Source: a bacterium (GTDB lineage: Bacteria; Patescibacteriota; Dojkabacteria; JAKAPS01; JAJZLI01). Taken from it: a stretch of 64,000 nt of DNA. The position numbers and the translations under genes were made by a program. This document shows positions 28,167-47,583 of this stretch, piece after piece. The stretch covers positions 71,484 through 135,483 of the forward strand of contig JAJZWL010000001.1 in assembly GCA_021846685.1 (NCBI GenBank), written 5' to 3'. The notes beneath the pieces were generated by a model that made no database searches, was not told where the DNA came from, and saw only the letters and a program-made list of their open reading frames with translations. Numbering within the stretch: position 1 is the first letter of the stretch; every line of letters begins with the position of its first letter.

Positions 28167-28246
28167 AGACTATATAAGAATATAGTGTGGAAATTTTAAA
28201 TTAAGATATATTTACTTCGGGAGACAGTAAACGCTATTCGAACTTT
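28167..28246 (-). repeat. Pseudo-tRNA-Ser 3'-end repeat (Y1) plus about 50 bp copy of the tRNA-Ser(TGA) downstream flank, inverted
   Basis: Reverse complement AAAGTTCGAATAGCGTTTACTGTCTCCCGAAGTAAATATATCTTAATTTAAAATTTCCACACTATATTCTTATATAGTCT is near-identical to 46760-46833, the 3' end and flank of tRNA-Ser(TGA). Confidence 0.7.
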
Positions 28247-28251
28247 TAGGA

Positions 28252-28293
28252 TTGACATATCAAGGAGTTCCTAATATACTAGGAACTAGGAAC
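28252..28293 (+). promoter_or_regulatory. Sigma70-like promoter (TTGACA-17-TATACT) overlapped by a palindromic operator GTTCCTAatatacTAGGAAC plus a third TAGGAAC half-site
   Basis: Direct reading at 28252-28293, 19 bp upstream of the ATG of the wHTH-PRTase gene. Confidence 0.45.
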
Positions 28294-28311
28294 TTGTATT
28301 AATTTAAAATT

Positions 28312-29292
28312 ATGAAACAAACAACTTCTGAGAAAATAATAGAGTATATAAATAAATTTGGCAGAGCTACTGGAAAAGAGCTATCTGACGCTATTCCCGC
28401 CATCACTAGTAGAGCTATAAGAAAACAGTTGAAATCTATGCTCGAGAAAAATATTCTTGAGAAGATAGGGAAACCTCCTAAAGTGTATTATCTTATTGCA
28501 ACCAGTAAAAATGTACCTAATCCAGTTTTAATTAATAAAAGTGTAATGGCACTTATCAATGATAGATATTTATATATATCTCCCACTGGCAAGATGAAGG
28601 AAGGTTTAGATGGGTTTGTTATGTGGTGTGAATACACTCACCAAGATATAAAAAATACTTCGATTAAATATCTAGAAACAATAAAAAAATATGATCAATT
28701 TAAGAAAAATAGCCTTATAGATGGAATGCCCAAAATGAAGAGTACTTTTGATCCTGTTTTTGTAGACAAACTTTTTTATTTAGATTTTTATAGTATAGAG
28801 AGATTTGGAAAAACAAAGCTCGGTCAAATGCTTCTTTATTCAAAACAAAGTCAAAATAAAGCACTTATACAAAAATTAATAGCTACTATCCGCCCTAAAA
28901 TCATAAAAGTTATTGAGGATTATAATATTGATGGAGTATTATTTATACCACCAACTGTAAAAAGAGAAATACAATTTATGAAAGAATTAGAAAAATTTCT
29001 GAAATTACCAATAAAAAGAATATCTGTCACAAAAATAAAAACAGAAATTATTATTCCTCAAAAAACATTATCAAAACTTGAAGATAGAGTTGAAAATGCT
29101 AAACGCACTATAATGGTAGATGATTTTGATTTATATACCAATATACTGATTATTGACGACGCTGTAGGCTCGGGTGCAACATTAAATGAAACAGCAAAAC
29201 AAATAAAAAATAAACATATAGTAAGAGGAGATATAATTGGACTTGCAATAACAGGGAGTTTTAAAGGATTTGATATTATTAGTGAAGTATAA
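28312..29292 (+). CDS. Winged-HTH plus type-I phosphoribosyltransferase-domain protein (PurR-like architecture)
   Basis: N-terminal wHTH (GRATGKELSDAIPAITSRAIRKQLKSMLEKNILEKIG), C-terminal PRPP-binding motif NILIIDDAVGSGATLNETAK. Confidence 0.55.
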   Translation: MKQTTSEKIIEYINKFGRATGKELSDAIPAITSRAIRKQLKSMLEKNILEKIGKPPKVYYLIATSKNVPNPVLINKSVMALINDRYLYISPTGKMKEGLDGFVMWCEYTHQDIKNTSIKYLETIKKYDQFKKNSLIDGMPKMKSTFDPVFVDKLFYLDFYSIERFGKTKLGQMLLYSKQSQNKALIQKLIATIRPKIIKVIEDYNIDGVLFIPPTVKREIQFMKELEKFLKLPIKRISVTKIKTEIIIPQKTLSKLEDRVENAKRTIMVDDFDLYTNILIIDDAVGSGATLNETAKQIKNKHIVRGDIIGLAITGSFKGFDIISEV

Positions 29293-29585
29293 ATATCTTT
29301 TCCATAAATTATAATTTACTATATATTCATTTCTTCAGGCTCATTGGGATTAATTTAGAACTTTTGTTAATAGTTATTCCACCACTCACTATCCTTATAT
29401 TAAGACAAATATATTAGTAATATCTAATATATTCTTAAATTAGGATATTTTATTCCCCAATAAGACTTTATTGAGCCCTTTGTCTTAAGAGATTTTACAC
29501 CTTAGAGGCTATTTTGAGTATAGGTATTTCTATTTCTAAATTTCAAATCAGTAGGAGGTCATGAAATTAATAACATTTCGTCTTA

Positions 29586-29614
29586 TTGACAAAAACTATA
29601 GGATCTTATATAGT
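29586..29614 (+). promoter_or_regulatory. Sigma70-like promoter TTGACA-17-TATAGT upstream of hydrolase paralog A; near-identical to the promoter of paralog B
   Basis: GTCTTATTGACAAAAACTATAGG... versus GTCATTGACAAAAATTATAGG... on the minus strand at 45868-45896. Confidence 0.5.
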
Positions 29615-29646
29615 ATACTCAATTATTTTTAACCTACTTAAATATA

Positions 29647-30693
29647 ATGAGTGCAGAAGAAACAGATAAGCAAATAAAAGATTCTCTTGGAACTATATCT
29701 GGACATTTTAGAGAATTCAATAATAATGCACCTCATTTTTTAGTGGATGGTGAAAACAAAGAGAATATAGAGGAGCTTCTTCCAGAAATAAAATTTGATG
29801 AAGTTAGAGATGCAGAAACCGAACAAGTATATAGAATTTTTATCATTAATAAAGAGATGCTCGAAGAAGGAAAGGTACCTCTTGTTCTTACATTCCAATA
29901 TAATAAATATAATATAGGAATAGATGACCCCTATTCTCAAGAGTTAGCGCAAGTAATGGCTCAAGGAGGAAGGCCTATTATCGGAATAGAAAGTCCGTCA
30001 GTTGGAGGTTCTTCTGATATGACTAAAGCACAAGAAGATAACTTAAATGTAGGAAAGAAACCTTTTGAAGAGATATCAAGAAGTCAATTAAGAGCACTTT
30101 CTGGGGAAATTTATCACAAAAGTAATAAGGATAAAGAAATAGATTTCGGAGGATATTCTCAAGGGGCAATTAATGCTTTGAGTAACGCTGAAGTAGCAGA
30201 TGAATTTGATTTAAAAGTTAGAAATGTTGTTATGCTCGATCCACCAGGCATAACAGATCATACTGAAGGTAAAGGAAGGAAGTGGGCAATTGTTGGATTG
30301 GGCAGAGCAATGAGATCAGAAACTTCAAATCTAAGTTTTTATGGATTTGATGATAAAAAATATTCTATTTTAGCAAAAAGTCTATCAATTAAAAATGATG
30401 ATATTTTTTTAAGAAAAATGCAAATTTTATATTCTGCTGCTACAGGCAGAATAGTTCTTCCTGAAATTTTAAGATCAGTATTATCAAAACAACCTCAGAT
30501 AAAAATAACTTTTATAAACGGATCTGAAAGTAAAATTACATTAACTGAGGATAGAAAAAAATTATTTAGAGAGTTTAGTAATGATAAGAGAATAAGATGG
30601 ATAGTTCTTCCAGGAGATACTCATTCAGTAGGCGTGAATGTTAGAAGAATCGGATGGTTATTTAAATTTATAATGAAAGATCAACGTATGTGA
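29647..30693 (+). CDS. Alpha/beta-hydrolase-fold protein, paralog A (putative esterase/lipase)
   Basis: GxSxG nucleophile elbow FGGYSQGA, C-terminal LPGDTHSVG (catalytic His candidate). Shares REFNNNAP.FL.DG, FINGS.S and RIG motifs with the 44786-45844 product at about 35-40% identity. Confidence 0.5.
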   Translation: MSAEETDKQIKDSLGTISGHFREFNNNAPHFLVDGENKENIEELLPEIKFDEVRDAETEQVYRIFIINKEMLEEGKVPLVLTFQYNKYNIGIDDPYSQELAQVMAQGGRPIIGIESPSVGGSSDMTKAQEDNLNVGKKPFEEISRSQLRALSGEIYHKSNKDKEIDFGGYSQGAINALSNAEVADEFDLKVRNVVMLDPPGITDHTEGKGRKWAIVGLGRAMRSETSNLSFYGFDDKKYSILAKSLSIKNDDIFLRKMQILYSAATGRIVLPEILRSVLSKQPQIKITFINGSESKITLTEDRKKLFREFSNDKRIRWIVLPGDTHSVGVNVRRIGWLFKFIMKDQRM

Positions 30694-30798
30694 ATCACCA
30701 CAGTCTAGGTATAATACCTGATTATCTGATAATCTAGATTGTAGATAACTCCATTGAATATATAATCCATATAATAATGAGATTTATTCTTAATATGT

Positions 30799-30834
30799 AA
30801 TCGGAGGCGATACGCCTTATTTTAAACTATTTTA
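30799..30834 (-). repeat. Pseudo-tRNA-Ser 3'-end repeat, hairpin subtype (X1)
   Basis: ATCGGAGGCGATACGCCTTATTTTAAACTATTTT; its reverse complement reads AGTTTAAAATAAGGCGTATCGCCTCCGAT, resembling the T-arm/acceptor 3' end of tRNA-Ser(GCT). Confidence 0.55.
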
Positions 30835-30863
30835 TAAATGGATTACAAAATTAATTTATAAAT

Positions 30864-31931
30864 TTAAGCTGTAGGGTTAAAATAGTTTTCCACTGCAAAT
30901 CTGGATTGTTGCATAAATATATTTTTTAATAAACTTAAATTGTTTATTTCATAAAATACTAACATTGCTTCCCTATATTCATTAACATCTACATTTCTAA
31001 AAGATAATGGAAAAGAATTATGCGATAGTAGTAAAGCATTTGCAATAATTCTTCCTGTTCTTTTATTTCCATCCTCAAATGGTTGTATATATCCAATTAA
31101 TGGTATTGTAAGTAAAGCTTTTTCAAACACATTAGTTTTATTGTTAATAATTTTACAATATTGCTCTAATGCCTCTCTTATCTGAAAAACATTATCTAGT
31201 GGTTTATAGTTTGTTCCTGTTATTCTAACCAAACTATTTCTAATGTTTTTTGTCACACCCAAGTTGTCAATTAACAGTGAATGAATATGTTCAATTATTC
31301 CAACATTTAGTTCTATAAATTGGTCACCATTCTGTAATATGAATTCTAACGCTTTTTTGTGATTTATAATCATTATGGCCTCCTCTTTCTTTTTACCTTT
31401 TGCTTCTATACCGTCTTTTAAAAGAGTTTCAGTTTCAAGTAGAGTATATGTATTACCTTCCAAAACAGAAGATTTCCAGCTTATTTCAATTATTGCTCTT
31501 TCAAACTCTTTTTTTCGAATAACATCACTTAACTGTTTTACATTACCATTAAAATTTTCATTTAGAGTATTTAATTCAGATAATTCTTCCTTCGTCAATA
31601 TTTCATTTTGAACCAATGAAAATATATTACTATTGAATCTCTCTATAATTTCTCTATGATCAATATCTTTTTCATAATATTCCTTAGTATTTATATTCCT
31701 GAGTAAATTATATTTTATACTTAATCTATAACTAGTAGCTTTACCATTACCATGCTTCTCGATTAAATTTAAATTTAATAAATAAGACAGATCTCTATTT
31801 ACAGTCATGAAAGAGACTTCTTCATCAACAGTTTTTAAAAAATCAGTTATTTGAGATCTACCTAGCCACTTTTGAGTGGAAAGAATATTTAAAAGTTTGG
31901 ATTGTCTTTTATTTAATTTCATAATATTCAT
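30864..31931 (-). CDS. Fic/DOC-family protein with N-terminal wHTH
   Basis: Fic motif HPFEDGNKRTGRIIANALL (HPFx[DE]GNGR) and N-terminal HTH (SQITDFLKTVDEEVSFMTVNRDLSYLLNLNLIEK); 355 aa. Confidence 0.8.
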   Translation of the reverse strand: MNIMKLNKRQSKLLNILSTQKWLGRSQITDFLKTVDEEVSFMTVNRDLSYLLNLNLIEKHGNGKATSYRLSIKYNLLRNINTKEYYEKDIDHREIIERFNSNIFSLVQNEILTKEELSELNTLNENFNGNVKQLSDVIRKKEFERAIIEISWKSSVLEGNTYTLLETETLLKDGIEAKGKKKEEAIMIINHKKALEFILQNGDQFIELNVGIIEHIHSLLIDNLGVTKNIRNSLVRITGTNYKPLDNVFQIREALEQYCKIINNKTNVFEKALLTIPLIGYIQPFEDGNKRTGRIIANALLLSHNSFPLSFRNVDVNEYREAMLVFYEINNLSLLKNIFMQQSRFAVENYFNPTA

Positions 31932-32065
31932 AACATAATAGCAATATAATCATAACATTTCGTTACATATTTGTAAATAATATGTTACGTAAATATAGTG
32001 AATGGCAGTAAGGAAAGACTAAATTCGTAAGCTATATCAACATTGTATGGATATTTATAATGGGG

Positions 32066-32112
32066 TTGTCACATCAATCGGAGGCGATGCGCCTTATTTC
32101 GAACTATTTTTG
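32066..32112 (-). repeat. Pseudo-tRNA-Ser 3'-end repeat, hairpin subtype (X2)
   Basis: AATCGGAGGCGATGCGCCTTATTTCGAACTATTTTTGTGTTGG; its reverse complement AGTTCGAAATAAGGCGCATCGCCTCCGATTGATGTGACAACCCCAT parallels the tRNA-Ser(GCT) 3' end and its flank TGGATGCGACAAC. Confidence 0.6.
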
Positions 32113-32143
32113 TGTTGGCTCACTAAATTAATGGACATTTATT

Positions 32144-32440
32144 TCAATAAACTTGATTATGACTTCCAGTATCAACAAATACAAAGACAACATTATTTTC
32201 TTTCTCATAGTAGATAATCCTGCAATCTCCTGTTACTGAAAACGATCGGTACATTTTCAACTTTCCAGTTAATCGATGATCTTGTAGTATAGGGGTAAAA
32301 CGATCTTCTAAAAATAAATCAATGCGCTGTTGAACACGTTGTTCTAAATTTGTTTGATTGCTGATTCTTGCTTTAAAATGTTTAATAAAATCCTTTGTGT
32401 ATTCAATTCTCTTCTTCATCTTTGAAATTTCTAACTGCAT
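32144..32440 (-). CDS. RelE/ParE-family type II toxin
   Basis: 98 aa; IEYTKDFIKHFK...RIIYYEKENNVVFVFVDTGSHNQVY matches RelE/ParE; overlaps the upstream antitoxin gene. Confidence 0.7.
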   Translation of the reverse strand: MQLEISKMKKRIEYTKDFIKHFKARISNQTNLEQRVQQRIDLFLEDRFTPILQDHRLTGKLKMYRSFSVTGDCRIIYYEKENNVVFVFVDTGSHNQVY

Positions 32441-32729
32441 CTATAATGTTTTTCCCGGAATAGGCAGTATACAAATTGCCATTCTTGGTCTCTGCTTCTA
32501 TTTCTGCTCGTTTTTTATCTAGATATTCTTCAAATTCTGGAGAAATATGTTCATCAGCATGTGGAGAAGAAAGAGTAAGCTGAATGTCTCCTTTGGAAAA
32601 ACTCATAATAAATATCCTTATTACCTCTTGAAGAGAACTATAGCCATAATCATGGGCTACCTTTTCTGCCTGTTTTTTTACAGATTTATTAAGAGGAACT
32701 TGTATTTTAGCGTAATCTGTTTGAATCAT
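32403..32729 (-). CDS. Putative antitoxin partner of the RelE/ParE toxin
   Basis: 108 aa acidic protein immediately upstream and overlapping the toxin gene; family not assigned. Confidence 0.45.
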   Translation of the reverse strand: MIQTDYAKIQVPLNKSVKKQAEKVAHDYGYSSLQEVIRIFIMSFSKGDIQLTLSSPHADEHISPEFEEYLDKKRAEIEAETKNGNLYTAYSGKNIIDAVRNFKDEEEN

Positions 32730-32941
32730 AATTCTTTATTTATTATTTACTTTCATTATTATACCACTTTGATACTTTTTGTCAACATATTACATCTGTT
32801 CAGATTCTTATCAGGTTGAAAAATTAAAACATTAATGAATAATTTATTAAGCAAGAATAGAAACTTTAAACTGAAAAATGAATCCCTTTATCAAGATTAT
32901 TGCTTGGCTTATTGATTTTTGTATTATGTTGTCGCATCCAT

Positions 32942-33029
32942 CGGAGAGAGAGAGATTCGAACTCTCGCGAGGATTTCTCCTCCTAAGGGTTTAGCAAACC
33001 CTCCCCTTCAGCCACTTGGGTACCTCTCC
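32942..33029 (-). tRNA. tRNA-Ser (anticodon GCU)
   Basis: Minus-strand read GGAGAGGTACCCAAGTGGCTGAAGGGGAGGGTTTGCTAAACCCTTAGGAGGAGAAATCCTCGCGAGAGTTCGAATCTCTCTCTCTCCG. Anticodon loop TTGCTAA, long variable arm, T-loop TTCGAAT, no encoded CCA. Confidence 0.85.
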
Positions 33030-33078
33030 AAATATAATAAAGTATATCAAAAAATGAGTTTATATAAAAGTTAATTGT

Positions 33079-34011
33079 ATGTTGTATAATATATTATTAA
33101 TGAATAATAAAAATAAAATCTTAATATTTTTTCTTGTAGTTATAGTATATTTTTCTATATTAGTTTTAGTTTTTATACACTTTATAAATATTCCTGTAGT
33201 AGGGAACAAAGAAAGAAAGGTGGGCATAAATTCTAAGATAAATATAGTTGCATCTGTAAATTATTTCAATCCTTTTAATTTCAAAACTCAAAATTCATCA
33301 ATATCAAGTACCTCTTCAGGAAAGGTTATTCAGTCAAATATTGTTGCAAATTTTGCAAGTATAAAAAATGAGACAATTATCTACTTCGTGCATAAACAAT
33401 GGAAATATACAATAAACGCCACAAATACTCTATTTAAAAAGGATAATGTAATAGTTTATTATAAAAAAAATGGACATAATACTTTATTGGAAATATACAT
33501 ACCAAATAGCTTTAAAATATCTGACTTAGTATCATTATTTGATGTTAACTATAGTACCTATTCATATCCCTTTGACTATACTCAGATGAATGATACTTTG
33601 GCTTCTTTAGATACGACATATACTCCATATATAAGAAGTACTTCTTTTGTTTTTTATAAAAATAATTTCAATAATGTTGGTCATTTCCAGTACAACACAC
33701 CAATAGAAGAAATTAAGGGTGTCTCAATGATTAATACTTCTTCACAAGGGAGTATTAATAGTCTTCTACATGAGTATATGTCAAGGTTTTCTATATGGGG
33801 ATATATTCCTTTTACTGTATATGGAGCTATAATTGATAATAATACAATATATTATCTTAAGTATGGTTTAGGGGGTGCGAGTATAAAAGTTTTAGTTAAA
33901 CCTGAAAATGGATATTCTTTTGTATATTATAGTATAAAAGTCTCTGCTTCTTCTTCAAACAATAATTTATCCTTGTTTAATAGATTGGGATGGAGTAGTG
34001 TATTTAATTAA
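33079..34011 (+). CDS. Hypothetical membrane-anchored/secreted protein
   Basis: N-terminal signal-anchor ILIFFLVVIVYFSILVLVFIHFINIPVV; Asn/Ser/Tyr-rich ectodomain; no family. Confidence 0.35.
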   Translation: MLYNILLMNNKNKILIFFLVVIVYFSILVLVFIHFINIPVVGNKERKVGINSKINIVASVNYFNPFNFKTQNSSISSTSSGKVIQSNIVANFASIKNETIIYFVHKQWKYTINATNTLFKKDNVIVYYKKNGHNTLLEIYIPNSFKISDLVSLFDVNYSTYSYPFDYTQMNDTLASLDTTYTPYIRSTSFVFYKNNFNNVGHFQYNTPIEEIKGVSMINTSSQGSINSLLHEYMSRFSIWGYIPFTVYGAIIDNNTIYYLKYGLGGASIKVLVKPENGYSFVYYSIKVSASSSNNNLSLFNRLGWSSVFN

Positions 34012-35079
34012 GCTTTGAGAGTTTAATTTTATTTGTGTATACCAATTAGATAGGTTGTGGATTAAATCTTTATCCTTAGTATTTAATGCAATTTCAGATG
34101 TTCCAAATAATACTCCGAATGTTGAAAAGTTATGTGATCCTATTATTAAAGAAGAATTAGGGGCATTTTTATCTAAAATTATCATTTTTGCATGTATATA
34201 CTTTTCAGACTGCTCATATAAATTAGAAAGATTTATATTGCTTAAATTAAATAGTATTTGCTCTATTTTATGTCTAATTTTTTTTTCGGCAATACTATTT
34301 GAATGTACAATAATCTCAACTGCAAGACCTCTTTTAACGGCTTTCTGAAGTGCAAAAAGAATTTTAAAATCTGGTAGGAATTGAGATATATAGCTAATAT
34401 CTTCTTTCGCATTATTTATAGCATTAATGGCCTCATTATATATGATAGATTGTCCTTTTTTCCCAGAATCTATAAGAAGTGAATTTTCTTTATTAATATT
34501 GACTATCTTGTCACTATATTTTATTCCTGTACTGTTCTTTAAGAAGATACTTTTTAAATTATTTCTAATTTCTCTGTCTTTTGTTTTCACCATGAAGTCA
34601 TAATAATTAAAAGATTTTTTCCCAAAATTCATTCCACCTATATATGAATAATTATCAATTATAGTTATTTTCATATGATTTCTTCCTATAAAGGGGAAAT
34701 ATTCAGCTATAGCTTTATTATATCTATATTCATTGATAAAATTGATTTCAATATCAGCAGATGTCATTTCTTTGAAATATTTTTGACTTATTTGAATATT
34801 ATTTTTACATTTATCTCTTTTTTCTTTATTTATATGTATAAAATACTTGTGTCCTTGGATATATTGATTTGAGTAATTATCAATATTGAATTTAACTGAG
34901 ACCCCTCTTTTTTTAGCTGCTATAACTTCTTTTGTAAATTCTTTTAAAGAATCATCAAAATATACATACATTGCTTGTATATATATATTTTTTTTTGCCT
35001 TTTTAACAAGTTGAATAAGATCACTTAGATATTCTTCTGAAGGTATTAATTCATACATTACTAATATACAATATATCAA
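33967..35079 (-). CDS. Phospholipase D-family protein with two HKD motifs (cardiolipin-synthase-like, no TM)
   Basis: HMKITIIDNYSYIGGMNFG and HAKMIILDKNAPNSSLIIGSHNFS, i.e. two HxK(x4)D(x6)G(S/G)xN motifs. Confidence 0.75.
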   Translation of the reverse strand: MIYCILVMYELIPSEEYLSDLIQLVKKAKKNIYIQAMYVYFDDSLKEFTKEVIAAKKRGVSVKFNIDNYSNQYIQGHKYFIHINKEKRDKCKNNIQISQKYFKEMTSADIEINFINEYRYNKAIAEYFPFIGRNHMKITIIDNYSYIGGMNFGKKSFNYYDFMVKTKDREIRNNLKSIFLKNSTGIKYSDKIVNINKENSLLIDSGKKGQSIIYNEAINAINNAKEDISYISQFLPDFKILFALQKAVKRGLAVEIIVHSNSIAEKKIRHKIEQILFNLSNINLSNLYEQSEKYIHAKMIILDKNAPNSSLIIGSHNFSTFGVLFGTSEIALNTKDKDLIHNLSNWYTQIKLNSQSLIKYTTPSQSIKQG

Positions 35080-38608: not shown

Positions 38609-38620
38609 AAGATAAATTAA

Positions 38621-40754: not shown

Positions 40755-40795
40755 AGTTCGAATATCGTCTACAGTCTCCCGATGGATGCGACAAC
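40755..40795 (+). repeat. Pseudo-tRNA-Ser 3'-end repeat (Y2) carrying the tRNA-Ser(GCT) downstream flank
   Basis: AGTTCGAATATCGTCTACAGTCTCCCGATGGATGCGACAAC; the last 15 nt are identical to the flank just 3' of the genuine tRNA-Ser(GCT) at 32927-32941. Confidence 0.65.
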
Positions 40796-40821
40796 ACTTG
40801 AGAAAGTGACTGAATATATTG

Positions 40822-40848
40822 TAGTTTCGAACTAAATAAGGTGTTCGA
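40822..40848 (+). repeat. Truncated hairpin-subtype pseudo-tRNA-Ser repeat (X4)
   Basis: AGTTTCGAACTAAATAAGGTGTTCGATG, related to X1-X3. Confidence 0.4.
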
Positions 40849-40958
40849 TGATAGAATTTTGAAGCCTTTATATGCCCTTATATGACAATAAATCTATATT
40901 ATAGGAGATTTTTGCTCGAACTCATACATATATTAAGATCGCCATTGACTATTTCACA

Positions 40959-41582: not shown

Positions 41583-42573
41583 AAAACTAAAACAAATAGT
41601 AAAGATGAAAAGTATAAAAAATCCGGAACTTCTAAGGGTTATTTTGAAGATGGAGCTTATTGAATATGTTTTACAGTATATTTATACGTCAAAATACCGT
41701 AATTTAATATTTAAAGGGGGAACATGTTTAAATATCTGTTATGATTTACCTAGACTTTCAGAAGATATAGATTTGGATTTTGTTAACGAGATAGATATAA
41801 GCTCATTAAGAGAAGATTTGATATCATATTTTAAAACTGAACTTGCATATGATAGGCTTTACGCCTCAGTAACAAATAATAATCAAACTATAACTTTAAA
41901 ATTTCCTGTTCTTAGGGATTTAGGTTTAGCAAATCAAAGCGAAAGTGATTTGTTATATATAAAACTTGATATACAAAAATCTCCATTCTTTAATATTACT
42001 ACTGACTTAGTTCCGAGAAAAAACTATGTAATTAAAGCTTATTCTCTTCCTCTGTTATTTACTGGGAAAGTAAATGCCATTTTTACTAGAAATAAGTTAG
42101 TTGGAAAAGAAAATAAATTTGTACCAAAAGGAAGAGATTATTTTGATTTACTTTGGTTTCTACAAAAAGGAATAAGACCAGATATTTCAATGCTTGAACA
42201 GGAACTGAATATATCTTCAAATATTGAATTTAAAGTTCGTTTAGATCAAAGAGTAATCGGTATGTTTACTAAATATAAGGATGAAATAATAAACGACCTA
42301 AAGCCATTTATTGAAAACACCGACATTCTTAATCAATTTGTAGAATCATTTTTACCATTATATTTAAAATATTCATTAGAGATTTTTGATTATAGAGTTC
42401 CTGATGAAGTATCAAGGCGAAATTATTTAATTGATGAGCTTAATTCTATTATAAAAGGGAAAAAGCTACAGGGCAAAGAAATTATGAAGGTTCTTAATGA
42501 TATGGATACTTATAAGAAAGGTTCTAACAATCTAGATATTCTAGGAATATACAATTATTTAATATCTTTATAG
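41572..42573 (+). CDS. AbiEii/AbiGii-family nucleotidyltransferase toxin, copy 2
   Basis: LIFKGGTCLNICYDLPRLSEDIDLDFV DUF1814 hallmark; 333 aa. Confidence 0.7.
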   Translation: MFIEKLKQIVKMKSIKNPELLRVILKMELIEYVLQYIYTSKYRNLIFKGGTCLNICYDLPRLSEDIDLDFVNEIDISSLREDLISYFKTELAYDRLYASVTNNNQTITLKFPVLRDLGLANQSESDLLYIKLDIQKSPFFNITTDLVPRKNYVIKAYSLPLLFTGKVNAIFTRNKLVGKENKFVPKGRDYFDLLWFLQKGIRPDISMLEQELNISSNIEFKVRLDQRVIGMFTKYKDEIINDLKPFIENTDILNQFVESFLPLYLKYSLEIFDYRVPDEVSRRNYLIDELNSIIKGKKLQGKEIMKVLNDMDTYKKGSNNLDILGIYNYLISL

Positions 42574-42656
42574 CTCCAGTAATAACTAATACTATTATTG
42601 GAATTTTATGGGTAATTATATTTAATAGATCTTTACTTGCATTATACATATATATT

Positions 42657-42845
42657 TCAGTAATTATTATTTGTCTGATCTTTTATATAATAAAGAATAT
42701 GAGTTTTACCAACTTGCCTTGCGCCATGCAAGACTATTATATTACTGTCATTGATATAACGCATTATATCCTCCACAATGTCTCTTTCTATTACCTTTGT
42801 ATTCATAGTCACGACAATATTGTAATACTCTAAAATTAGAGTCAA
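42657..42845 (-). pseudogene. N-terminal fragment of a P-loop ATPase (DUF4143/AAA-like)
   Basis: 62 aa ORF with IIVLHGARQVGKTHILYYI Walker A and nothing downstream; full-length relatives are about 400 aa. Confidence 0.5.
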
Positions 42846-42906
42846 TCTTGTTTTTAGAGTATTTTCTTAAGAGATTATTTATTATAGATTTTCATAAATT
42901 TTGCAA

Positions 42907-42949
42907 TCCAACACAAAAATAGTTCAAAATAAGGCATATCACCTCAGAT
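42907..42949 (+). repeat. Pseudo-tRNA-Ser 3'-end repeat, hairpin subtype (X3)
   Basis: CCAACACAAAAATAGTTCAAAATAAGGCATATCACCTCAGATT, the reverse complement of the X2 sequence with a few substitutions. Confidence 0.6.
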
Positions 42950-42962
42950 TTAATATGATGTA

Positions 42963-43955
42963 TTGAATTTTTATTATATAATTAAAGATATGGATTCAAT
43001 ATTATCTCCAATAAAAAAAGTTTTACCATTAATGACGAATGTTTTGATTGACGAAGAATCAATTTATAAATTTTCAATAAATATAGATAAATCATATCTT
43101 TTAAAATCTGAATATAATAAAGATACTTTGTTAGGCGAAAATTATGGAGAAGAAGAATATATAGCTTTTGTATTTGTATATAACAGTTTAAATTTTTCAT
43201 ACTGGGGATATCCTAAGTGGACTATAAATATACAAGGTAATAACTATGATGGAAGTGCAGCAATGATAAGAGCTATTAAGAGAGCAATCACAGAAGGACA
43301 TAATATATTAAATTCCAAATTCCTTATAAATTTAACAAAGAAACAATTAAGTGAAATATTTAGAGGAAATATAGAGATTCCCTTATTTAAAGAGAGATTA
43401 AAATTATTAAATATTCTTGGGGAATTGATAGAAAATAAATATCAAGGTTCATTTAAAAAATTTATTGATGAGGCAAAATGGGATGCAGAGTTGATAGTAG
43501 AAAAATTATCAAAAGAACTACCAGATATATTTAATGATACTAATATATATATAGGACAAAATATTAATTTTTATAAAAGAGCGCAATTAATACCAGCCCA
43601 TTTATATGATTTATATAATTTAAATATTATAAAATCTCCAATTTATAATATTGACAAATTAACAGCATTTGCTGATTATAAAGTTCCTCAATTAATGAGA
43701 AATTTAGGTATTATTAAATATTCATCTGATCTATCTTATAAAATTGATAATCTAATAGAGATACCAGCAGGGAGTAATGACGAGATAGAAATCAGAATAG
43801 CTACTATTTGGGCAATTGAATTGTGTACAAGGCAAATTAAAAAATATATTCCTCAAGTTACTTCAACACAAGTACATGGAGTTTTTTGGTTTTCAGGACA
43901 AAAATCTAATATTGAAATTAAGCCATATCATCGTACACGAACCATTTGGTATTAA
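42963..43955 (+). CDS. Queuosine-salvage-family protein (DUF2419/Qng1-like), tentative
   Basis: YNSLNFSYWGY and FADYKVPQLMRNLGII resemble conserved blocks of the Q_salvage family; 330 aa; start may be the internal Met at about 42990. Confidence 0.45.
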   Translation: MNFYYIIKDMDSILSPIKKVLPLMTNVLIDEESIYKFSINIDKSYLLKSEYNKDTLLGENYGEEEYIAFVFVYNSLNFSYWGYPKWTINIQGNNYDGSAAMIRAIKRAITEGHNILNSKFLINLTKKQLSEIFRGNIEIPLFKERLKLLNILGELIENKYQGSFKKFIDEAKWDAELIVEKLSKELPDIFNDTNIYIGQNINFYKRAQLIPAHLYDLYNLNIIKSPIYNIDKLTAFADYKVPQLMRNLGIIKYSSDLSYKIDNLIEIPAGSNDEIEIRIATIWAIELCTRQIKKYIPQVTSTQVHGVFWFSGQKSNIEIKPYHRTRTIWY

Positions 43956-43959
43956 TAAA

Positions 43960-43997
43960 AGTTCGATTCTCTCTCTCCGATGGATCCGACAACCCCA
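43960..43997 (+). repeat. Pseudo-tRNA-Ser 3'-end repeat (Y4), closest to the genuine tRNA-Ser(GCT) end
   Basis: AGTTCGATTCTCTCTCTCCGATGGATCCGACAACCCC versus genuine AGTTCGAATCTCTCTCTCTCCGATGGATGCGACAAC. Confidence 0.65.
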
Positions 43998-44166
43998 TTG
44001 CAAATGTCTATCAAATGTTGATACGTCGGGATGATTTATCAGTTATATTAATTGATAATAATTTTGGATTACAAAAATAATGAGATTAAAATGTTCCGGT
44101 ACTAATAGGTACTTGACAGTACTTCTGAGTGTAGTATAATATAAATTATAGTTTAGAAACATTCAT

Positions 44167-44427
44167 ATGGCTACAACAATACAGGTAAAATTAACATTAC
44201 CAAAAAAGATAAAGGATTATTATGATTCAAAAGCAGCAGAATTTGATATGCAAACTTCTACTTTCATAAAATATCTACTTATCAAGAATATTGAAGATGA
44301 GAGTATTCCAACATATCAAGCTTCTAAATATACAGAAAAATATATTACTAATGGGTTGCAAGAATATAAAACTGGAAAACTTAAAAAATTTACTAGTCAT
44401 AAAGATTTTATTAAAACGGTATCTTAA
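44167..44427 (+). CDS. Putative RHH-type antitoxin of a RelE/ParE pair
   Basis: 86 aa, 2-nt gap to the toxin gene; paralogous in architecture to 46933-47214. Confidence 0.45.
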   Translation: MATTIQVKLTLPKKIKDYYDSKAAEFDMQTSTFIKYLLIKNIEDESIPTYQASKYTEKYITNGLQEYKTGKLKKFTSHKDFIKTVS

Positions 44428-44429
44428 GG

Positions 44430-44702
44430 TTGATAATAAACTATTCATCAAAATTTACTAATCAGTATAAAGAGCTTATAAAAACTAATAAGAAACTTAC
44501 TCTCAAGGTTGATAAGAAGATAGGCTTTTTTATAAATAATCCTTATCATCCGTCATTAAGAACGCATAAAGTAAGTACAACTAAGGCGGGAGTAGCATTT
44601 TCATTTTGGGTGGCAGGAGATCTACGTATAATATTTACATGGGTAGGAAAAAATGAAGTACTATTTTTGCTAATAGGAAATCATAAAGAAGTTTATAAGT
44701 AG
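44430..44702 (+). CDS. RelE/ParE-superfamily type II toxin (YafQ/RelE-like)
   Basis: HPSLRTHKV...GDLRIIFTWVGKNEVLFLLIGNHKEVY; 90 aa; paralog of 47207-47482. Confidence 0.65.
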   Translation: MIINYSSKFTNQYKELIKTNKKLTLKVDKKIGFFINNPYHPSLRTHKVSTTKAGVAFSFWVAGDLRIIFTWVGKNEVLFLLIGNHKEVYK

Positions 44703-44785
44703 AAGTAATTTTTAAATTAAATATAAAATTTTTTATCTTTGGAATTTTGTTTAATCCTACAATCTTATATTGGGGGATATATTTA

Positions 44786-45844
44786 TTATTTTGTAGTTAA
44801 TCTATAGAGATTTCCAATCCGTTTAGCTCTTTCTCCTACTGCATGAGTATCTCCTGGGAGTATAATTCTTCTCACTCTAGATTGCATTCCTTGAGGAATG
44901 CTATTGTTTAAATCTTTAGAGGAGCTGATTGTACTTTTTGATCCATTTATGAAAATAACCCTCATATCAGGCTGACTTTCTAATGCTGATTTCAACATAT
45001 AGGGAACTATACGTCTTGACATTCCTGCAGGATAAGCAGTAAACATGCCTTTTCTTCTCATTGGTTTTAATACTAAATCTTTTCCTAATTTTGCATATGT
45101 TTTTACAGGATTTTTCTTATTATCAACACCACTAGCTTCTCTTTGTTTTTTGTCATGAGGGTCTTTTTCGTAAAAACTTAAGTTAGGGGCATCTGAAGCA
45201 AAAGCTTTCATTATTCCAATACTTGCTTTGGTTTTTTTTAATTTTTTTCTTTCAGTAAAATCTTTTACTCCTGGAATCTCAAGAGCAAATAAAGTTTTGA
45301 CTGTAAATCCAAAATCATCAGCTTGTTCTGCTAAACTTAAAGCTATAAGAGCTCCTTGAGAATAACCAGCCAAATCAATTTCACAAGTATTCCCAAGTAG
45401 AGGCTCTAATGCTCTATACATTGATTTAGATAATTGTGAAAAGGGATTATCATTTTCTCTTAAAGATTTTGCTTGTGTTCTAGTCATATCAGAAGACTCT
45501 CCTACAGAATGACTCTCCACTATTATAATGGGCTTAGATTCTGCTGCCATTTCTTGAGCTAGGTATAATATTGGTTTGTGTTCTATTCCTATATTATATT
45601 GTAATGTGAGTATTGTAGGGGTATCTCCTTTTTTTAATGCTTCCTCATTTAAGATAGCTACTCTTAATGTTTGTCTTGTTTCTGGGTCTTCAATTTCAGT
45701 ATAAGTAATAGGGGATTCAGATATATTTTTTGGATCTTTGCCATCAATTAAAAAAGAAGGAGCGTTATTGTTAAATTCCCTCAAATTCTGAGACGCAGAA
45801 TTGCTCCCAGTAGTATTTCCTTCTATAAATGTCTCTATTCCCAT
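44786..45844 (-). CDS. Alpha/beta-hydrolase-fold protein, paralog B
   Basis: LAGYSQGA nucleophile elbow, LPGDTHAVG; same motif set as the 29647-30693 product. Confidence 0.5.
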   Translation of the reverse strand: MGIETFIEGNTTGSNSASQNLREFNNNAPSFLIDGKDPKNISESPITYTEIEDPETRQTLRVAILNEEALKKGDTPTILTLQYNIGIEHKPILYLAQEMAAESKPIIIVESHSVGESSDMTRTQAKSLRENDNPFSQLSKSMYRALEPLLGNTCEIDLAGYSQGALIALSLAEQADDFGFTVKTLFALEIPGVKDFTERKKLKKTKASIGIMKAFASDAPNLSFYEKDPHDKKQREASGVDNKKNPVKTYAKLGKDLVLKPMRRKGMFTAYPAGMSRRIVPYMLKSALESQPDMRVIFINGSKSTISSSKDLNNSIPQGMQSRVRRIILPGDTHAVGERAKRIGNLYRLTTK

Positions 45845-45867
45845 AATATTTTTTAATATAAAAACAG

Positions 45868-45896
45868 ATTATATTCTAACCTATAATTTTTGTCAA
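45868..45896 (-). promoter_or_regulatory. Sigma70-like promoter TTGACA-17-TATAAT for hydrolase paralog B, conserved with the paralog A promoter
   Basis: Minus-strand GTCATTGACAAAAATTATAGGTTAGAATATAAT. Confidence 0.5.
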
Positions 45897-46009
45897 TGAC
45901 AACATTCTCGTCATATATATATGCTTATGTACTGCAATATTATTTACATGTTTGACATTTTCTATGGGGTGTAATAATATATTTATATTAATTTTAGTTT
46001 TATATATTT

Positions 46010-46600
46010 ATGGGGACAGAGACAGATTTAAACTTACGTTTTAATGGTGATATTGTAGCTGTTGGAATAACTGATCAAGGTATAAGATATGAAAAATCTG
46101 AAACTCAGGAAGTTCTTCCTAATGATGGATATGAAGTAACTACCAGTACTAAGTATTCTGATGGACATAGAAGTAAGGAGAGGTATGTTCATAGAAATGA
46201 TGAGCAAGGAAATCCTATTGAAAATATTGTGTCTGTAGAAGATAGTAATACTCAAGATGTTGTAACATTTTTTAAATTTGAAAGAACTTCTTTTATAGAT
46301 AATACGCGTATTACAACTGAAGTGATAAGAGATGATGAAGGGAACTTAAAGGAATATACCTATAGAGGTTTTGTTTCTGGAAGCAGAGTTTTAACATCAC
46401 ATCACATAGAATATGGAGATGATAATAAAAGATTAAGAGAAGTAATAGTGAAATCAAATAATCGTACTATAAGTACATTTAATGATAATGGTGAATTATT
46501 AAGGAGGGAAATTGTAAGGGTAAAAGGAAATCAAGAAATAACTGCGATTTATGGAAGTGATGGTAAAATCATAGAACATAAGAAAACTTTTTTAAGATAA
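46010..46600 (+). CDS. Hypothetical protein with degenerate beta-rich repeats
   Basis: 196 aa; recurring DG..(E/K)Y...G short repeats; no family; divergent from hydrolase B. Confidence 0.35.
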   Translation: MGTETDLNLRFNGDIVAVGITDQGIRYEKSETQEVLPNDGYEVTTSTKYSDGHRSKERYVHRNDEQGNPIENIVSVEDSNTQDVVTFFKFERTSFIDNTRITTEVIRDDEGNLKEYTYRGFVSGSRVLTSHHIEYGDDNKRLREVIVKSNNRTISTFNDNGELLRREIVRVKGNQEITAIYGSDGKIIEHKKTFLR

Positions 46601-46692
46601 AGTTTGGTTAATTTAAATTTGCATGTATTATAATCTCTATTTGGATGATATAATCATTTTTATAAATAATTTCTATTTATATGAAACTGTAA

Positions 46693-46779
46693 GGAGAGGT
46701 GGCCGAGTGGTTGATGGTAACAGTCTTGAAAACTGTCGGGGGTGAAAGCTCCTCGTGGGTTCGAATCCCACCCTCTCCG
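46693..46779 (+). tRNA. tRNA-Ser (anticodon UGA)
   Basis: GGAGAGGTGGCCGAGTGGTTGATGGTAACAGTCTTGAAAACTGTCGGGGGTGAAAGCTCCTCGTGGGTTCGAATCCCACCCTCTCCG; anticodon loop CTTGAAA, long variable arm. Confidence 0.85.
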
Positions 46780-46932
46780 AAGTAGATATATCTTAACTTG
46801 AAATTTCCACACTATATTCTTATATAATCTATTTATAAACGTATATAATTATTATCTATAGTAAAAAATATTCTTTAATTGACAAAAACTAACTAAAATG
46901 GTATTGTTTAGTATATACTTATCAATAATAAT

Positions 46933-47214
46933 ATGAGTGATACAAATTTAATACAAATAAAAGTAAATAAAGAATTTAGAGCAAAACTTGAAGATATTGC
47001 CTCTGAGTATGATTTACCTGTATCTTCTTTTATAAAGGTAGTAATAGGTGATTTTATAAGAAATAAAAGAACTAATATATTAACAGAGAATGGCTTCTCT
47101 AAAAAAGAAGAACAAAGAATATTGGATAGTATTAATATAACCAATAAAGATATAAAAAATAAAAAAGTAAATATAATCAATACTAAAGATTTCATATCTT
47201 CCTTGAATGATTAA
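46933..47214 (+). CDS. Putative antitoxin of a RelE/ParE pair, copy 2
   Basis: 93 aa; overlaps the toxin gene by 8 nt; PVSSFIKVVIGDFI parallels STFIKYLLIKNI of copy 1. Confidence 0.4.
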   Translation: MSDTNLIQIKVNKEFRAKLEDIASEYDLPVSSFIKVVIGDFIRNKRTNILTENGFSKKEEQRILDSINITNKDIKNKKVNIINTKDFISSLND

Positions 47215-47482
47215 AAGAGTGATCTATTCTAATAATTTCAAAAAATCCTATAGGAAAGTTATTCTGAAGAATAGAAAATTTAAAGACTCATTTGATAAGA
47301 AGTGGAATATATTTATTAATAATCCAGAATATCCAAGTTTAAAAAATCATGATTTAAAGGGAAATTTAAAAGGGTTAAAATCAATTTCTATAAAATATAA
47401 CATGAGATTAATATATAAAGAAGTATCTAAAGATATAATTATTGTATATGATATAGGGACACATGATGAAGTTTATAAATAA
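47207..47482 (+). CDS. RelE/ParE-superfamily type II toxin, copy 2
   Basis: NNPEYPSLKNHDLKG...MRLIYKEVSKDIIIVYDIGTHDEVYK; paralog of 44430-44702. Confidence 0.6.
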   Translation: MIKRVIYSNNFKKSYRKVILKNRKFKDSFDKKWNIFINNPEYPSLKNHDLKGNLKGLKSISIKYNMRLIYKEVSKDIIIVYDIGTHDEVYK

Positions 47483-47506
47483 ATTCTAAATTATATTTAT
47501 AATAAA

Positions 47507-47536
47507 AGTTTGAATAGCGTCTACGGTCTCCCGAAG
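47507..47536 (+). repeat. Pseudo-tRNA-Ser 3'-end repeat (Y3), direct relative to tRNA-Ser(TGA)
   Basis: AGTTTGAATAGCGTCTACGGTCTCCCGAAG, near-identical to the core of Y1 (reverse complement of 28217-28246). Confidence 0.6.
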
Positions 47537-47583
47537 TCACGCCACATCGCGTCTCATAGTAAGGAAGCACTCATAGATGGAGT

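Follow-up and report, generated by a model that had tools for sequence, protein, structure and literature searches.

Defence and toxin-antitoxin cassettes of 0.7-2 kb are apparently inserted, swapped and shared between species at tRNA-Ser ends in a small group of ultra-small bacteria (Patescibacteria/CPR)

Integrons have the integrase IntI and sites with the attC fold, and tycheposons are a documented case of tandem accretion in which partial tRNA repeats accompany degraded elements. The locus considered here lies in a window of 64,000 nt, by which we mean the whole stretch of DNA analysed. Its three tRNA-Ser genes appear to act as attachment sites for small gene cassettes that carry no recombinase, and we put at about 0.65 the probability that this is an active cassette system operating at tRNA-Ser 3' ends.

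ARAGORN calls four tRNA genes in the window (Ser-GCU, Arg-GCG, Ser-CGA and Ser-UGA; Table 1), and agrees to within 1 nt with the three tRNA-Ser genes, GCU on the minus and CGA and UGA on the plus strand, of an initial annotation made from the letters alone. Two of these face outward from a core block, which in species L005 has the opposite orientation with respect to the ribosomal-protein operon, and it is at this block (33.0-38.6 kb) that the orientation of the short sites flips, as had been described. There are at least twelve such sites, or arms, 31 nt long in families A, B, D and A2 and 26 nt in family C; all lie within 28.2-49.85 kb and have the orientation of the nearest tRNA-Ser gene. 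In a window-wide identity scan every site scoring at least 26/31 fell inside that interval, scores of 20-21/31 being at shuffle level, and the shuffles yielded no match to families A and B. The copies listed in the initial annotation are real sites, if fewer than are present, except for that at 40822-40848, which is no more than a B-like relic with heavy deletions, an interpretation that is plausible and cannot be proved.

All copies had been taken for partial tRNA-Ser 3' ends. This holds for family C; in families A, B, D and A2, the span from GTTCGAA to CCGA is 27 nt, as against 22 nt in the three tRNAs, and what they have in common with the tRNA-Ser end is a terminal CTCC(C)GA and, in the T-loop, the box GTTCGAA. 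A surplus of 5 nt over the tRNA end rules out that arms A, B and D are displaced tRNA halves; on sequence grounds family C alone copies a tRNA end, the pseudo-tRNA ends of the other four families being mimics. The sites gave no Rfam match. The tRNA-Ser(GCU) flank TGGATGCGACAAC reported at 40783-40795 is indeed there, and variants of it occur after 43980 and before 32078 as well. The supposed copy of about 50 bp of tRNA-Ser(UGA) flank is in reality 105-109 nt long (28112-28220 against 46777-46884, 92-100% identical) and represents a stub left by another copy of the RelE cassette found behind tRNA-Ser(UGA). The initial annotation had also placed one module in each interval between repeats; the PRTase and hydrolase A genes, treated as one, have arm D between them and are therefore two cassettes. 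Numerous gene and cassette stubs occur in the array.

Table 1. Coordinates of tRNA genes, arms and cassettes in the window, with their counterparts in related loci (L numbers)
Feature	Position	Strand	Content and basis	Related loci
tRNA-Ser(GCU)	32941-33030	-	minus-array docking site; junction between 32941 and 32940, directly after CTCTCCGA; ARAGORN, empty-site comparison	L011
Core block	33031-38533	.	310-aa membrane protein, ClsB-like PLD protein, P-type ATPase, 197-aa membrane protein; between outward-facing tRNA-Ser(GCU) and tRNA-Ser(CGA); Pfam, locus comparison	
tRNA-Arg(GCG)	38534-38609	+	precedes tRNA-Ser(CGA); ARAGORN	
tRNA-Ser(CGA)	38621-38710	+	plus-array docking site; junction between 38711 and 38712; ARAGORN	L011: followed by a cassette other than the window's
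tRNA-Ser(UGA)	46693-46779	+	third docking site; junction between 46780 and 46781; ARAGORN	
Family A	28217-28247(-), 40752-40782(+), 47504-47534(+)		AAAAGTTCGAATAGCGTCTACGGTCTCCCGA, 1-2 mismatches; 0 matches in shuffles	
Family B	32078-32108, 30801-30831	-	AATAGTTCGAAATAAGGCGCATCGCCTCCGA; 0 expected	
Decayed B	42918-42948	+	26/31; identity scan	
Family C	43955-43980	+	real tRNA-Ser(GCU) 3' end, 2 nt shorter, GCU-type flank behind	
Arm D	29335-29365	-	between PRTase and hydrolase A genes; overlooked initially	
Arms A2, A2'	48097-48127, 49814-49844	+	overlooked initially	
c1, 863 bp	32078-32940	-	flank TGGATGCGACAAC, RelE/YafQ-type toxin 32144-32440, partner 32403-32729, B arm 32078-32108; Pfam, comparisons	L011, L012: absent; L005: after tRNA-UGA, 93% identical
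c2	30801-32077	-	flank TTGATGTGACAACCCC, Fic 30864-31931 (SoFic/PDC-S04-like), B arm 30801-30831	L026: tRNA-CGA array, behind B arm; L038: behind A arm; 92.5% identical; L011: immediately behind tRNA-GCU
c3	29335-30800	-	serine hydrolase A 29647-30693 (GYSQG motif, opposite orientation), decayed arm D 29335-29365	L005: intact A arm at homologous junction
c4	28217-29334	-	flank AGAAATGAATATATA, HTH-PRTase 28312-29292 (opposite orientation; like PsyrT and retron III-A PRTase), A arm 28217-28247	L005, L009: 89% identical
c5, distal unit	26727-28216	-	RelE#3 stub 28112-28216 (105 nt of second RelE#3 cassette, inverted copy of 46781-46884), AbiEi 27485-28066, AbiEii 26727-27488; no distal arm found	L011: longer stub, extra genes (adh_short, ResIII helicase)
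c6	38712-40782	+	flank TTTTATTACTAAAG, DUF433 38776-39030, DUF5615 from 39113 (interrupted by IS3-family IS, ~39288-40643), A arm 40752-40782	L004, L005: uninterrupted 720-bp unit behind B arm, 96-98.6% identical
c7, relic	40783-40848	+	GCU-type flank TGGATGCGACAACACTTGAG, deleted B-like arm 40822-40848	L005: flank directly behind tRNA-GCU
c8	40849-42948	+	AbiEi 40959-41582, AbiEii 41572-42573, AAA_14 gene stub 42657-42845 (-), decayed B arm 42918-42948	L005: 95.8% identical
c9	42949-43980	+	queuosine-salvage (DUF2419) gene 42963-43955, C arm 43955-43980	L005: A arm; L026: flank follows tRNA-UGA
c10, composite	43981-46692	+	RelE/ParE-type pair 44167-44702, serine hydrolase B 44786-45844 (-), 196-aa repeat protein 46010-46600; internal arms not detectable	
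c11, 754 bp	46781-47534	+	flank AGTAGATATATC, antitoxin-like gene 46933-47214, YafQ-type toxin 47207-47482, A arm 47504-47534	L038: 3' end and arm recur
Decayed distal units	47535-49844	+	DDE_Tnp_1 stub 47584-47889, arm A2, membrane protein 48363-48755, M23 peptidase 48794-49591, arm A2'; same ~140-nt stub of a gene 3' end upstream of each A2 arm	

The deciding evidence comes from related genomes, all of them metagenome assemblies of which only a few dozen kb each were inspected. In the same-species strain L011, tRNA-GCU ends in CTCCGA and is followed at once by TTGATGTGACAAC, and the window has an exact 863-bp RelE-type insert at that point. Both L011 and L012 read CTCTCCGA and then TTGATGTGACAACCCC and Fic; in the window CTCTCCGA is followed by TGGATGCGACAAC, the RelE pair, arm B ending in CCTCCGA, and only then TTGATGTGACAACCCC and Fic, the DNA on either side being 97-98.6% identical. 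As the tRNA keeps its native 3' end, the crossover is to be placed within the CTCCGAT common to both, outside the T-loop. The same cassettes stand behind differing tRNA-Ser genes and arms in five related species, with different partners and a join that always falls immediately after CCGA: the PRTase flank meets arm D (window, L011), arm A (L005) or tRNA-CGA (L009); the RelE#1/BrnA flank tRNA-GCU (window), tRNA-UGA (L005, L009), tRNA-CGA (L026) or arm A (L005); the Fic flank arm B (window, L026), tRNA-GCU (L011) or arm A (L038); the Q_salvage flank arm B, tRNA-UGA or a decayed A arm; and the DUF433 flank tRNA-CGA or arm B.

Half of the synteny breakpoints (12/24) are no more than 15 nt away from a junction, against an expected 1.8% per point, and none of 20,000 random sets did as well; the remainder are mostly at the IS3 boundary or at a site's opposite edge. 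Together with the empty site in L011 and its occupied counterpart, this is a positive outcome of a comparison, decisive here, that the initial annotation had proposed, namely whether presence/absence breakpoints in related genomes coincide with the repeats. Its accretion hot spot is supported as well, the sister species L031 and L035 having the same tRNA and core backbone with no arm and no array. Between species, cassettes are 88-98.6% identical and core genes 66-77%, and L005 and L009, which are 99.97% identical over 2.9 kb, differ at one junction through a rearrangement at the core, which argues that the system was recently active; the suggestion that the array is simply old can thus be rejected.

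A recombinase is missing from what could be searched. Pfam found no Phage_integrase or Resolvase domain in ORFs of at least 60 aa at 26-52 kb or at least 150 aa at 1-24 kb, the only transposase matches being the IS3-family DDE transposase and the DDE_Tnp_1 stub. Within those ORFs the earlier statement that the window has no tyrosine or serine recombinase stands; 52-64 kb, outside the scan, is by ORF order EF-Tu and the ribosomal-protein operon, in agreement with precomputed Pfam annotation for the corresponding orthologous DNA of sister-species loci. Two non-coding stretches, 47535-48362 and 49845-50570, yielded only a ParB-like pseudogene and the end of a repeat-protein gene when translated in six frames. 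Precomputed Pfam annotation of called genes likewise revealed no integrase, resolvase or remnant in some ten related contexts or in the 10 kb adjoining the window on its left, and more than 25 cassettes from five species contain no integrase gene or fragment. The mobilising enzyme must therefore act in trans, the alternative that we favour, and is unidentified, its existence and class being inferred.

In the cassette system that we propose, each unit, read in the tRNA sense, would consist of its own specific 5' flank, one module, of the defence or toxin-antitoxin kind and in either orientation, preceded by non-coding DNA long enough for a promoter of its own, and a 3' arm of ~31 nt that imitates the tRNA-Ser 3' end only in its T-loop box (AAAAGTTCGAA) and terminal CTCC(C)GA. 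A recombinase encoded elsewhere, most likely the tyrosine integrase of a tRNA-Ser-targeting element, would exchange DNA within the last 7-8 bp, CTCCGA(T/A), a stretch that runs from the final bases of the acceptor stem through the discriminator base to the base after it. Since a crossover at the extreme 3' end would leave the tRNA intact with any arm, arms need not be functional tRNA halves; with the crossover in those last 7-8 bp, the sites are not classical displaced tRNA 3' ends. Recombination between tRNA ends and arms could then insert or excise single cassettes, presumably through a circle, build tandem arrays and move cassettes between tRNA-Ser isoacceptors, and oppositely oriented sites could invert the DNA between them, the central ATPase block included; cassettes also pass between species, by a transfer route that can only be inferred. 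Several observations sit uneasily with this: its central actor has not been found, the identity at family A/tRNA junctions is only 4-5 bases (TCTCC/CCGA), short for the overlap region of a tyrosine recombinase, the right-hand flanks have no motif in common outside a TKGATSYGACAAC subgroup, and arms are undetectable in c10 and around the RelE#2 pair of L026, which is inverted. Neither an excised circle nor an arm joined to its own flank was seen in the short contigs examined. The Q_salvage cassette, with arm C in the window and arm A in L005, calls for either gene conversion or a further site of exchange at the GTTCGAA box.

Similar arrays might be expected if integrase-carrying islands had serially entered the tRNA-Ser genes and later lost their integrases and most of their cargo, leaving att scars and single modules, with present variation due to deletion and to homologous recombination or transformation between strains and not to mobility of single cassettes. 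Family C, a true tRNA-GCU 3' end with 13 nt of flank, does look just like a classical attR, tycheposons offer a documented precedent and the many stubs would be in keeping with it. We nevertheless regard this account as unlikely: the more than 25 cassettes examined lack even integrase fragments, arms A, B and D have the wrong length, two nearly identical contigs are rearranged, and minimal units (863-bp RelE, 1.28-kb Fic, 0.72-kb DUF433/5615 and 1.1-kb PRTase) recur with the same ends and different partners, so that independent decay is not their source.

It is also conceivable that no site-specific enzyme is involved, and that tRNA genes, arms (31-70 nt) and shared flanks merely anchor segments swapped by RecA-dependent or microhomology-mediated recombination. 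Patescibacteria are thought to take up DNA; similarity among family B arms reaches 57-70 nt, several flanks have 13-49 nt in common, the presence or absence of c1 could spread within a species if crossovers occurred on both sides, one in the tRNA and one in the Fic cassette, and the A-to-C arm change after Q_salvage could be gene conversion. This becomes improbable, however, at the junctions themselves, where left partners (three tRNAs and arms A, B and D) that have only GTTCGAA and CTCCGA in common meet the same flanks exactly after CCGA, with an identity of 4-8 bp, far below the RecA requirement; nor was any chimeric tRNA or arm seen, and site polarity is kept in every array. Least credible of all is that the repeats merely resemble one another by chance in AT-rich sequence or were created by metagenome assembly. 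The genome has a GC content of 28%, and the 40822-40848 copy and the 20-21/31 matches are at noise level, but independent assemblies (ENA, NCBI, JGI and Logan) have these arms at homologous junctions, and the shuffles, identity scan, junction comparison and breakpoint test already refute this reading.

The comparison with integrons drawn by the initial annotation is apt as a functional analogy, for the tRNA-Ser cassettes behave in an integron-like manner, and does not extend to identity. In contrast to an integron, the tRNA-Ser system has no IntI and its sites no attC-like fold, and its cassettes occur in either orientation and have space for promoters of their own.

Comparison with two loci of the same species as the window (L011 and L012, 97-98.6% identical) provides an exact pair of empty and occupied sites. 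In both, tRNA-Ser(GCU) ends in ...CTCTCCGA and runs across the junction, through TTGATGTGACAACCCC, directly into the Fic cassette; in the window the same point holds an 863-bp insert that opens with TGGATGCGACAAC..., carries a RelE pair and closes with a 31-nt site, arm B, ending ...CCTCCGA, after which the same TTGATGTGACAACCCC resumes. The 3' end of tRNA-Ser(GCU) is thus unaltered by the insertion, which places the crossover in the shared CTCCGAT; a T-loop crossover, the classical sublocation, is ruled out by the empty site of L011, which shows the native tRNA 3' end before and after insertion. The target tRNA is intact, and the empty site is present in relatives. Elsewhere, L011 has a methyltransferase cassette after tRNA-Ser(CGA), where the window has DUF433/DUF5615, and extra genes beside its AbiE pair. 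These and the other relatives were recovered from several assemblies by exact-protein-sequence look-ups; all are metagenome assemblies, of which a few tens of kb were read per genome.

Single cassettes are thus seen to be inserted or excised at a recombination site, and between genomes they are also reordered. Species were told apart by the identity of core genes (EF-Tu and ribosomal proteins, the ATPase, UDG), which to the window is 66-77% in L005, L006, L007 and L009, 66-71% in L026 and 74.5% in L038, whereas the cassettes common to the window and these six loci are 88-98.6% identical and differ in order and partners. In the table of junctions compiled from these comparisons, the PRTase flank stands behind arm D, arm A or tRNA-Ser(CGA), the RelE#1/BrnA flank behind tRNA-Ser(GCU), tRNA-Ser(UGA), tRNA-Ser(CGA) or arm A, the Q_salvage flank behind arm B, tRNA-Ser(UGA) or a decayed A arm, and the DUF433 flank behind tRNA-Ser(CGA) or arm B; with L038 added, the Fic flank is found behind arm B, tRNA-Ser(GCU) or arm A. 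The point of every tabulated join is the end of CCGA, and half of the synteny breakpoints (12/24) fall at most 15 nt from a junction, a result matched by 0/20000 random sets. One rearrangement is very recent: over 2.9 kb L005 and L009 share 99.97% identity, yet the PRTase cassette follows tRNA-Ser(CGA) in L009 and a family A arm in L005. Two short contigs break close to sites: the 8.5-kb L003 has one end ~250 nt past the PRTase gene, near the position of the window's family A site and a 105-nt inverted repeat, and the 4.8-kb L008 starts 23 nt past a decayed A site; branching from population heterogeneity would give assembly breaks of this kind.

The short repeats described in the initial annotation are real, as neither family A (AAAAGTTCGAATAGCGTCTACGGTCTCCCGA; three copies in the window with at most two mismatches) nor family B (AATAGTTCGAAATAAGGCGCATCGCCTCCGA; two copies with at most three) has a single match in shuffled sequence. 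They had been read as partial copies of a tRNA-Ser 3' end, a description that survives only for family C, the one direct repeat at an element flank that copies the 3' part of a tRNA. The distance from GTTCGAA to CCGA is 22 nt in the three tRNAs and 20 nt in family C, and 27 nt in families A, B, D and A2, so that most sites are 5 nt too long to be tRNA ends; these four families resemble the tRNAs in two elements alone, the terminal CTCC(C)GA and the T-loop box, in front of which an A-run stands where a tRNA has its T-stem. Judged by their sequence, they are mimics of tRNA and not pieces of it. Sites scoring at least 26/31 all lie within 28.2-49.85 kb of the window, weaker matches being at shuffle level, and a single orientation is common to all sites within an array arm, with no inverted pairs flanking modules: left of the central 33.0-38.6 kb block they are on the minus strand, like tRNA-Ser(GCU), and right of it on the plus strand, like tRNA-Ser(CGA) and tRNA-Ser(UGA). 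The window as a whole has a GC content of 28%, with housekeeping genes in its left third and EF-Tu and a ribosomal-protein operon at its right end, and the organism belongs to the 'Patescibacteria group' according to the NCBI name of a Fic protein nearly identical to that of the window.

Positions of tRNA genes, individually located sites and the insertion element in the window
Feature	Position	Strand	Remarks
tRNA-Ser(GCU)	32941-33030	-	ARAGORN
tRNA-Arg	38534-38609	+	ARAGORN
tRNA-Ser(CGA)	38621-38710	+	ARAGORN
tRNA-Ser(UGA)	46693-46779	+	ARAGORN
Site D	29335-29365		overlooked in the initial annotation
Family B copy	42918-42948		decayed
Family C	43955-43980		genuine tRNA-Ser(GCU) 3' end
Site A2	48097-48127		overlooked in the initial annotation
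Site A2	49814-49844		overlooked in the initial annotation
IS3-family element	39288-40643	-	orfA 40255-40533, rve-domain orfB 39299-40099; interrupts DUF5615

Two sister species share the backbone without any arms: in L031, tRNA-Ser(GCU) adjoins AhpC and tRNA-Ser(CGA) and tRNA-Ser(UGA) are 950 nt apart, and in L035, tRNA-Ser(GCU) and tRNA-Ser(UGA) are in tandem and PAP2, YgjP and EF-Tu follow within 1.4 kb of tRNA-Ser(CGA). The arrays are therefore lineage-specific accretions. The window and L005 have the central ATPase block in opposite orientations with respect to the ribosomal-protein operon, and in L005 tRNA-Ser(GCU) borders the flank found in the window after arm A (at 40782). Inversion between two oppositely oriented sites would give such a junction, the reciprocal of which was not seen, and would also explain why two layouts exist, GCU to UGA (L005, L035) and CGA to UGA (window, L031). 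The discriminator of tRNA-Ser(CGA) and of tRNA-Ser(UGA) is followed by T (CTCTCCGT) in an array-less sister species (L031 17000/18039, L034 10633/11689) and by A (CTCTCCGA) in every array-bearing genome, which may be a difference in the target site; strain L032, of that same sister species, has CTCTCCGA and then a different flank. L032 also carries, between genes for 303-aa and 424-aa proteins and not at a tRNA site, a strain-specific insertion (10913-14362) encoding proteins of 705 aa (with a faint HNH_5 match) and 369 aa.

The units bounded by sites measure 0.7-2.1 kb and contain no recombinase and no recombination or transfer genes; some modules have no detectable arm. The array intervals hold two AbiEi/AbiEii pairs, an HTH-PRTase resembling PsyrT and retron III-A PRTase effectors, two paralogous serine hydrolases without a family match, a SoFic-like Fic protein, three RelE/YafQ/ParE-type pairs, a DUF433/DUF5615 pair split by an IS3-family element, a queuosine-salvage gene, an M23 peptidase with a small membrane protein, and several gene stubs. 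The genes for the PRTase and for hydrolases A and B run against site polarity, and each cassette has 60-350 nt of upstream sequence of its own, room enough for a promoter, for which no scan was made. The hydrolase paralogues (~350 aa, with a GYSQG serine-hydrolase motif; 29647-30693 and 44786-45844) occupy one cassette each and have no Pfam match above threshold and no NCBIfam or PADLOC family match. The HTH-PRTase (28312-29292) has 4265 homologues, the best 120 listed outside the lineage being 62-70% identical and including, among those named, Roizmanbacteria and Saccharimonadales; a palindromic operator-like motif (GTTCCTAATATACTAGGAACTAGGAAC in the window) precedes it in both loci read, and it seems to have been transferred widely as a gene in its own right. 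A distant CPR homologue (L018 6074-7386) lies 260 nt from tRNA-Glu with no such arms beside it, which argues that the site system is confined to the window's lineage.

DUF5615 is uninterrupted in L004 and L005, and a 70-nt copy of one end of the IS (window 39284-39353) recurs at L011 5504-5573, where it replaces part of a family A site, and at L006 20016-20085. The unit encoding the membrane protein and M23 peptidase is bracketed by a ~240-nt direct repeat (47958-48199 and 49669-49916; 83-85% identical), in each copy of which a decayed A-like site follows the 3'-terminal part of a repeat-protein gene (...LVLPKSIGGSLVL...NYPNIRIL*). Just before the B site at 42918 is a 62-aa N-terminal stub of an AAA_14 ATPase (42657-42845, minus strand); a full-length AAA_14/DUF4143 gene (L026 1-256) adjoins the tRNA-Ser(UGA) array in L026. 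The Fic cassette (32035-32083) and the unit that starts with the RelE#2 pair (43975-44023) share 82% identity in the 49 nt next to the junction and diverge beyond, so the 5' flanks of cassettes are themselves mosaic.

Four features make up the pattern: joins that are exact at a 4-8-bp core, constant site polarity, left and right partners that reassort, and inversion where sites face opposite ways. As a set they are the signature of conservative site-specific recombination. Crossover would take place at the very end of the acceptor stem, a position that would leave all three tRNAs intact and the arms free to differ from tRNA. The enzyme is another matter. The earlier remark that the window has no recombinase is borne out for the ORFs scanned (at least 60 aa in 26-52 kb, at least 150 aa in 1-24 kb), none of which matches Phage_integrase, another tyrosine recombinase or a serine recombinase; none was found in the 10 kb to the left of the window, the precomputed annotation of related loci (about ten contexts) lists no IntI or other recombinase, and viral, plasmid and phage collections searched with arms or cassettes yielded no recombinase either. 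From these absences we infer that an enzyme of unidentified class acts in trans. Local candidates were set aside: the PLD protein of the central block is ClsB-like (a cardiolipin synthase), proteins of 310, 197, 196, 211, 297 and 501 aa have no family match and nothing recombinase-like in their sequences, and the non-coding stretch at 49900-50520 on the minus strand, with no ORF of at least 50 aa, is not an integrase remnant but a ParB-like pseudogene (motif YYIINDGRYRIAALKIL) with frameshifts and stops. Viral contigs contain no match to family A, family B or the CTCCGATGGATGYGAYAAC core; across 185,579 species genomes (one per species) family A occurs in one other genome, L004; and the single match of the family B core in JGI metagenomes, inside a GC-rich gene of L010, is due to chance. 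The Fic and PRTase cassette proteins have no relatives in viral contigs, and the plus-strand array has only tRNA-Ser similarity to plasmids and phages. No excised circles were seen, short Logan contigs with the RelE#1 toxin being collinear with the chromosome; the circle junction of the excised 863-bp RelE cassette would read arm B ...CGCCTCCGA joined to TGGATGCGACAACATAAT.

Four features speak against a simple tyrosine integrase: the identity between family A and the tRNAs at the junction is very short, the right-hand flanks have no common motif except in a subgroup with TKGATSYGACAAC, the T-loop box of the arms is shifted by 5 nt relative to that of the tRNAs, and the arm that closes the Q_salvage cassette is C in the window but A in L005. 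Sites folded like attC of integrons are ruled out, because single-stranded folds, computed on either strand for families A, B, D and A2, are no better than those of shuffles (z -1.5 to +1.3) and a sensitive Rfam scan of 24-53 kb gave only tRNA-type matches and sub-threshold chance matches; nor is there any 11-6-11 dyad symmetry, the sites being asymmetric when their sequences are read directly. It is tempting to speculate that Patescibacteria have here a platform dedicated to cassette capture that functions as an analogue of the integron, in which tRNA-Ser 3' ends serve as attI, tRNA-mimic arms serve as attC, and a single trans-encoded recombinase services three isoacceptor genes, spreading defence cassettes between species. 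We hold this only tentatively, with a probability of roughly 0.3. For such an analogue, the arm would consist of the T-loop box, 12-13 variable nt and CTCC(C)GA, and the recombinase would possibly be unusual in needing one conserved arm and a 4-8-bp core.

How the tiny genomes of Patescibacteria acquire and exchange defence genes is poorly understood, and in a paper on gene exchange in the group (PMC12455944) the words tRNA, integrase, recombinase and integron are absent. The locus here offers a concrete, sequence-defined route, by which defence and toxin-antitoxin modules dock at tRNA-Ser ends as units of 0.7-2 kb. Because the junctions are known to the base, existing metagenomic reads allow a direct test for excised and circular cassettes and for an inverted central block, and comparison of array-bearing with array-less sister genomes could reveal the recombinase, whose identity is the key to the novelty of the system: if its substrate proves to be an asymmetric site that has a very short core and a single conserved arm, this would be a cassette system outside the integron family.

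Among known systems, integrons share with the arrays one small module per cassette with one site at its 3' end, insertion at a fixed platform, reshuffling of order and an abundance of toxin-antitoxin cassettes, and CALINs share the lack of a nearby integrase. However, tests of integron membership failed for IntI, which was not found, for attC, with no hairpin fold or Rfam match, and for cassette orientation, as cassettes lie in both orientations with room for their own promoters instead of being co-oriented behind Pc and mostly promoterless; moreover, the platform is the end of a tRNA gene and not an attI with a Pc promoter. The pdif modules of Acinetobacter plasmids, moved by XerC/XerD, are likewise small, single-function and often toxin-antitoxin modules bounded by short sites, with the recombinase encoded elsewhere, but their 28-bp sites are 11-6-11 dyads that flank each module in inverted orientation, whereas those of the window are asymmetric, directly oriented and tied to tRNA-Ser ends. 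CIMEs (cis-mobilizable elements, subject to accretion-mobilization at the att sites of ICEs) and psi-SCC (in composite SCC arrays at rlmH, without ccr) are also att-bounded units lacking their own recombinase that accrete in tandem at one chromosomal site and rely on the recombinase of another element. They derive from, and adjoin, recombinase-bearing parents; here no parent element was seen, and the units are much smaller, more numerous and individually reassorted.

The nearest published parallel is the tandem accretion seen at tRNA genes of streamlined genomes, as in the tycheposons of Prochlorococcus, whose neighbours are separated only by partial tRNA, whose degraded remnants are common, and whose figure-legend labels include tRNA-Ser(UGA) (10.1101/2020.12.28.424599). 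Like tycheposons and classical tRNA islands, the units here integrate at the 3' part of a tRNA, repeated integration pushes older units outward to give tandem arrays and degraded remnants, the cargo is of defence and niche genes, and the host genomes are small with few other mobile elements. Tycheposons, in contrast, encode a tyrosine or large serine recombinase of their own, in most cases with replication genes as well, measure several kb or more, and have integrases that cluster by target tRNA gene (10.1101/2020.12.28.424599); the units of the window are 0.7-2.1 kb without a recombinase, most of their repeats are mimics 5 nt too long rather than tRNA copies, and one cassette pool supplies three isoacceptor genes. 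We therefore file the system as a variant of tRNA-targeted integrative elements, distinguished by recombinase-less mini-cassettes, tRNA-mimic arms and the use of three isoacceptor genes.
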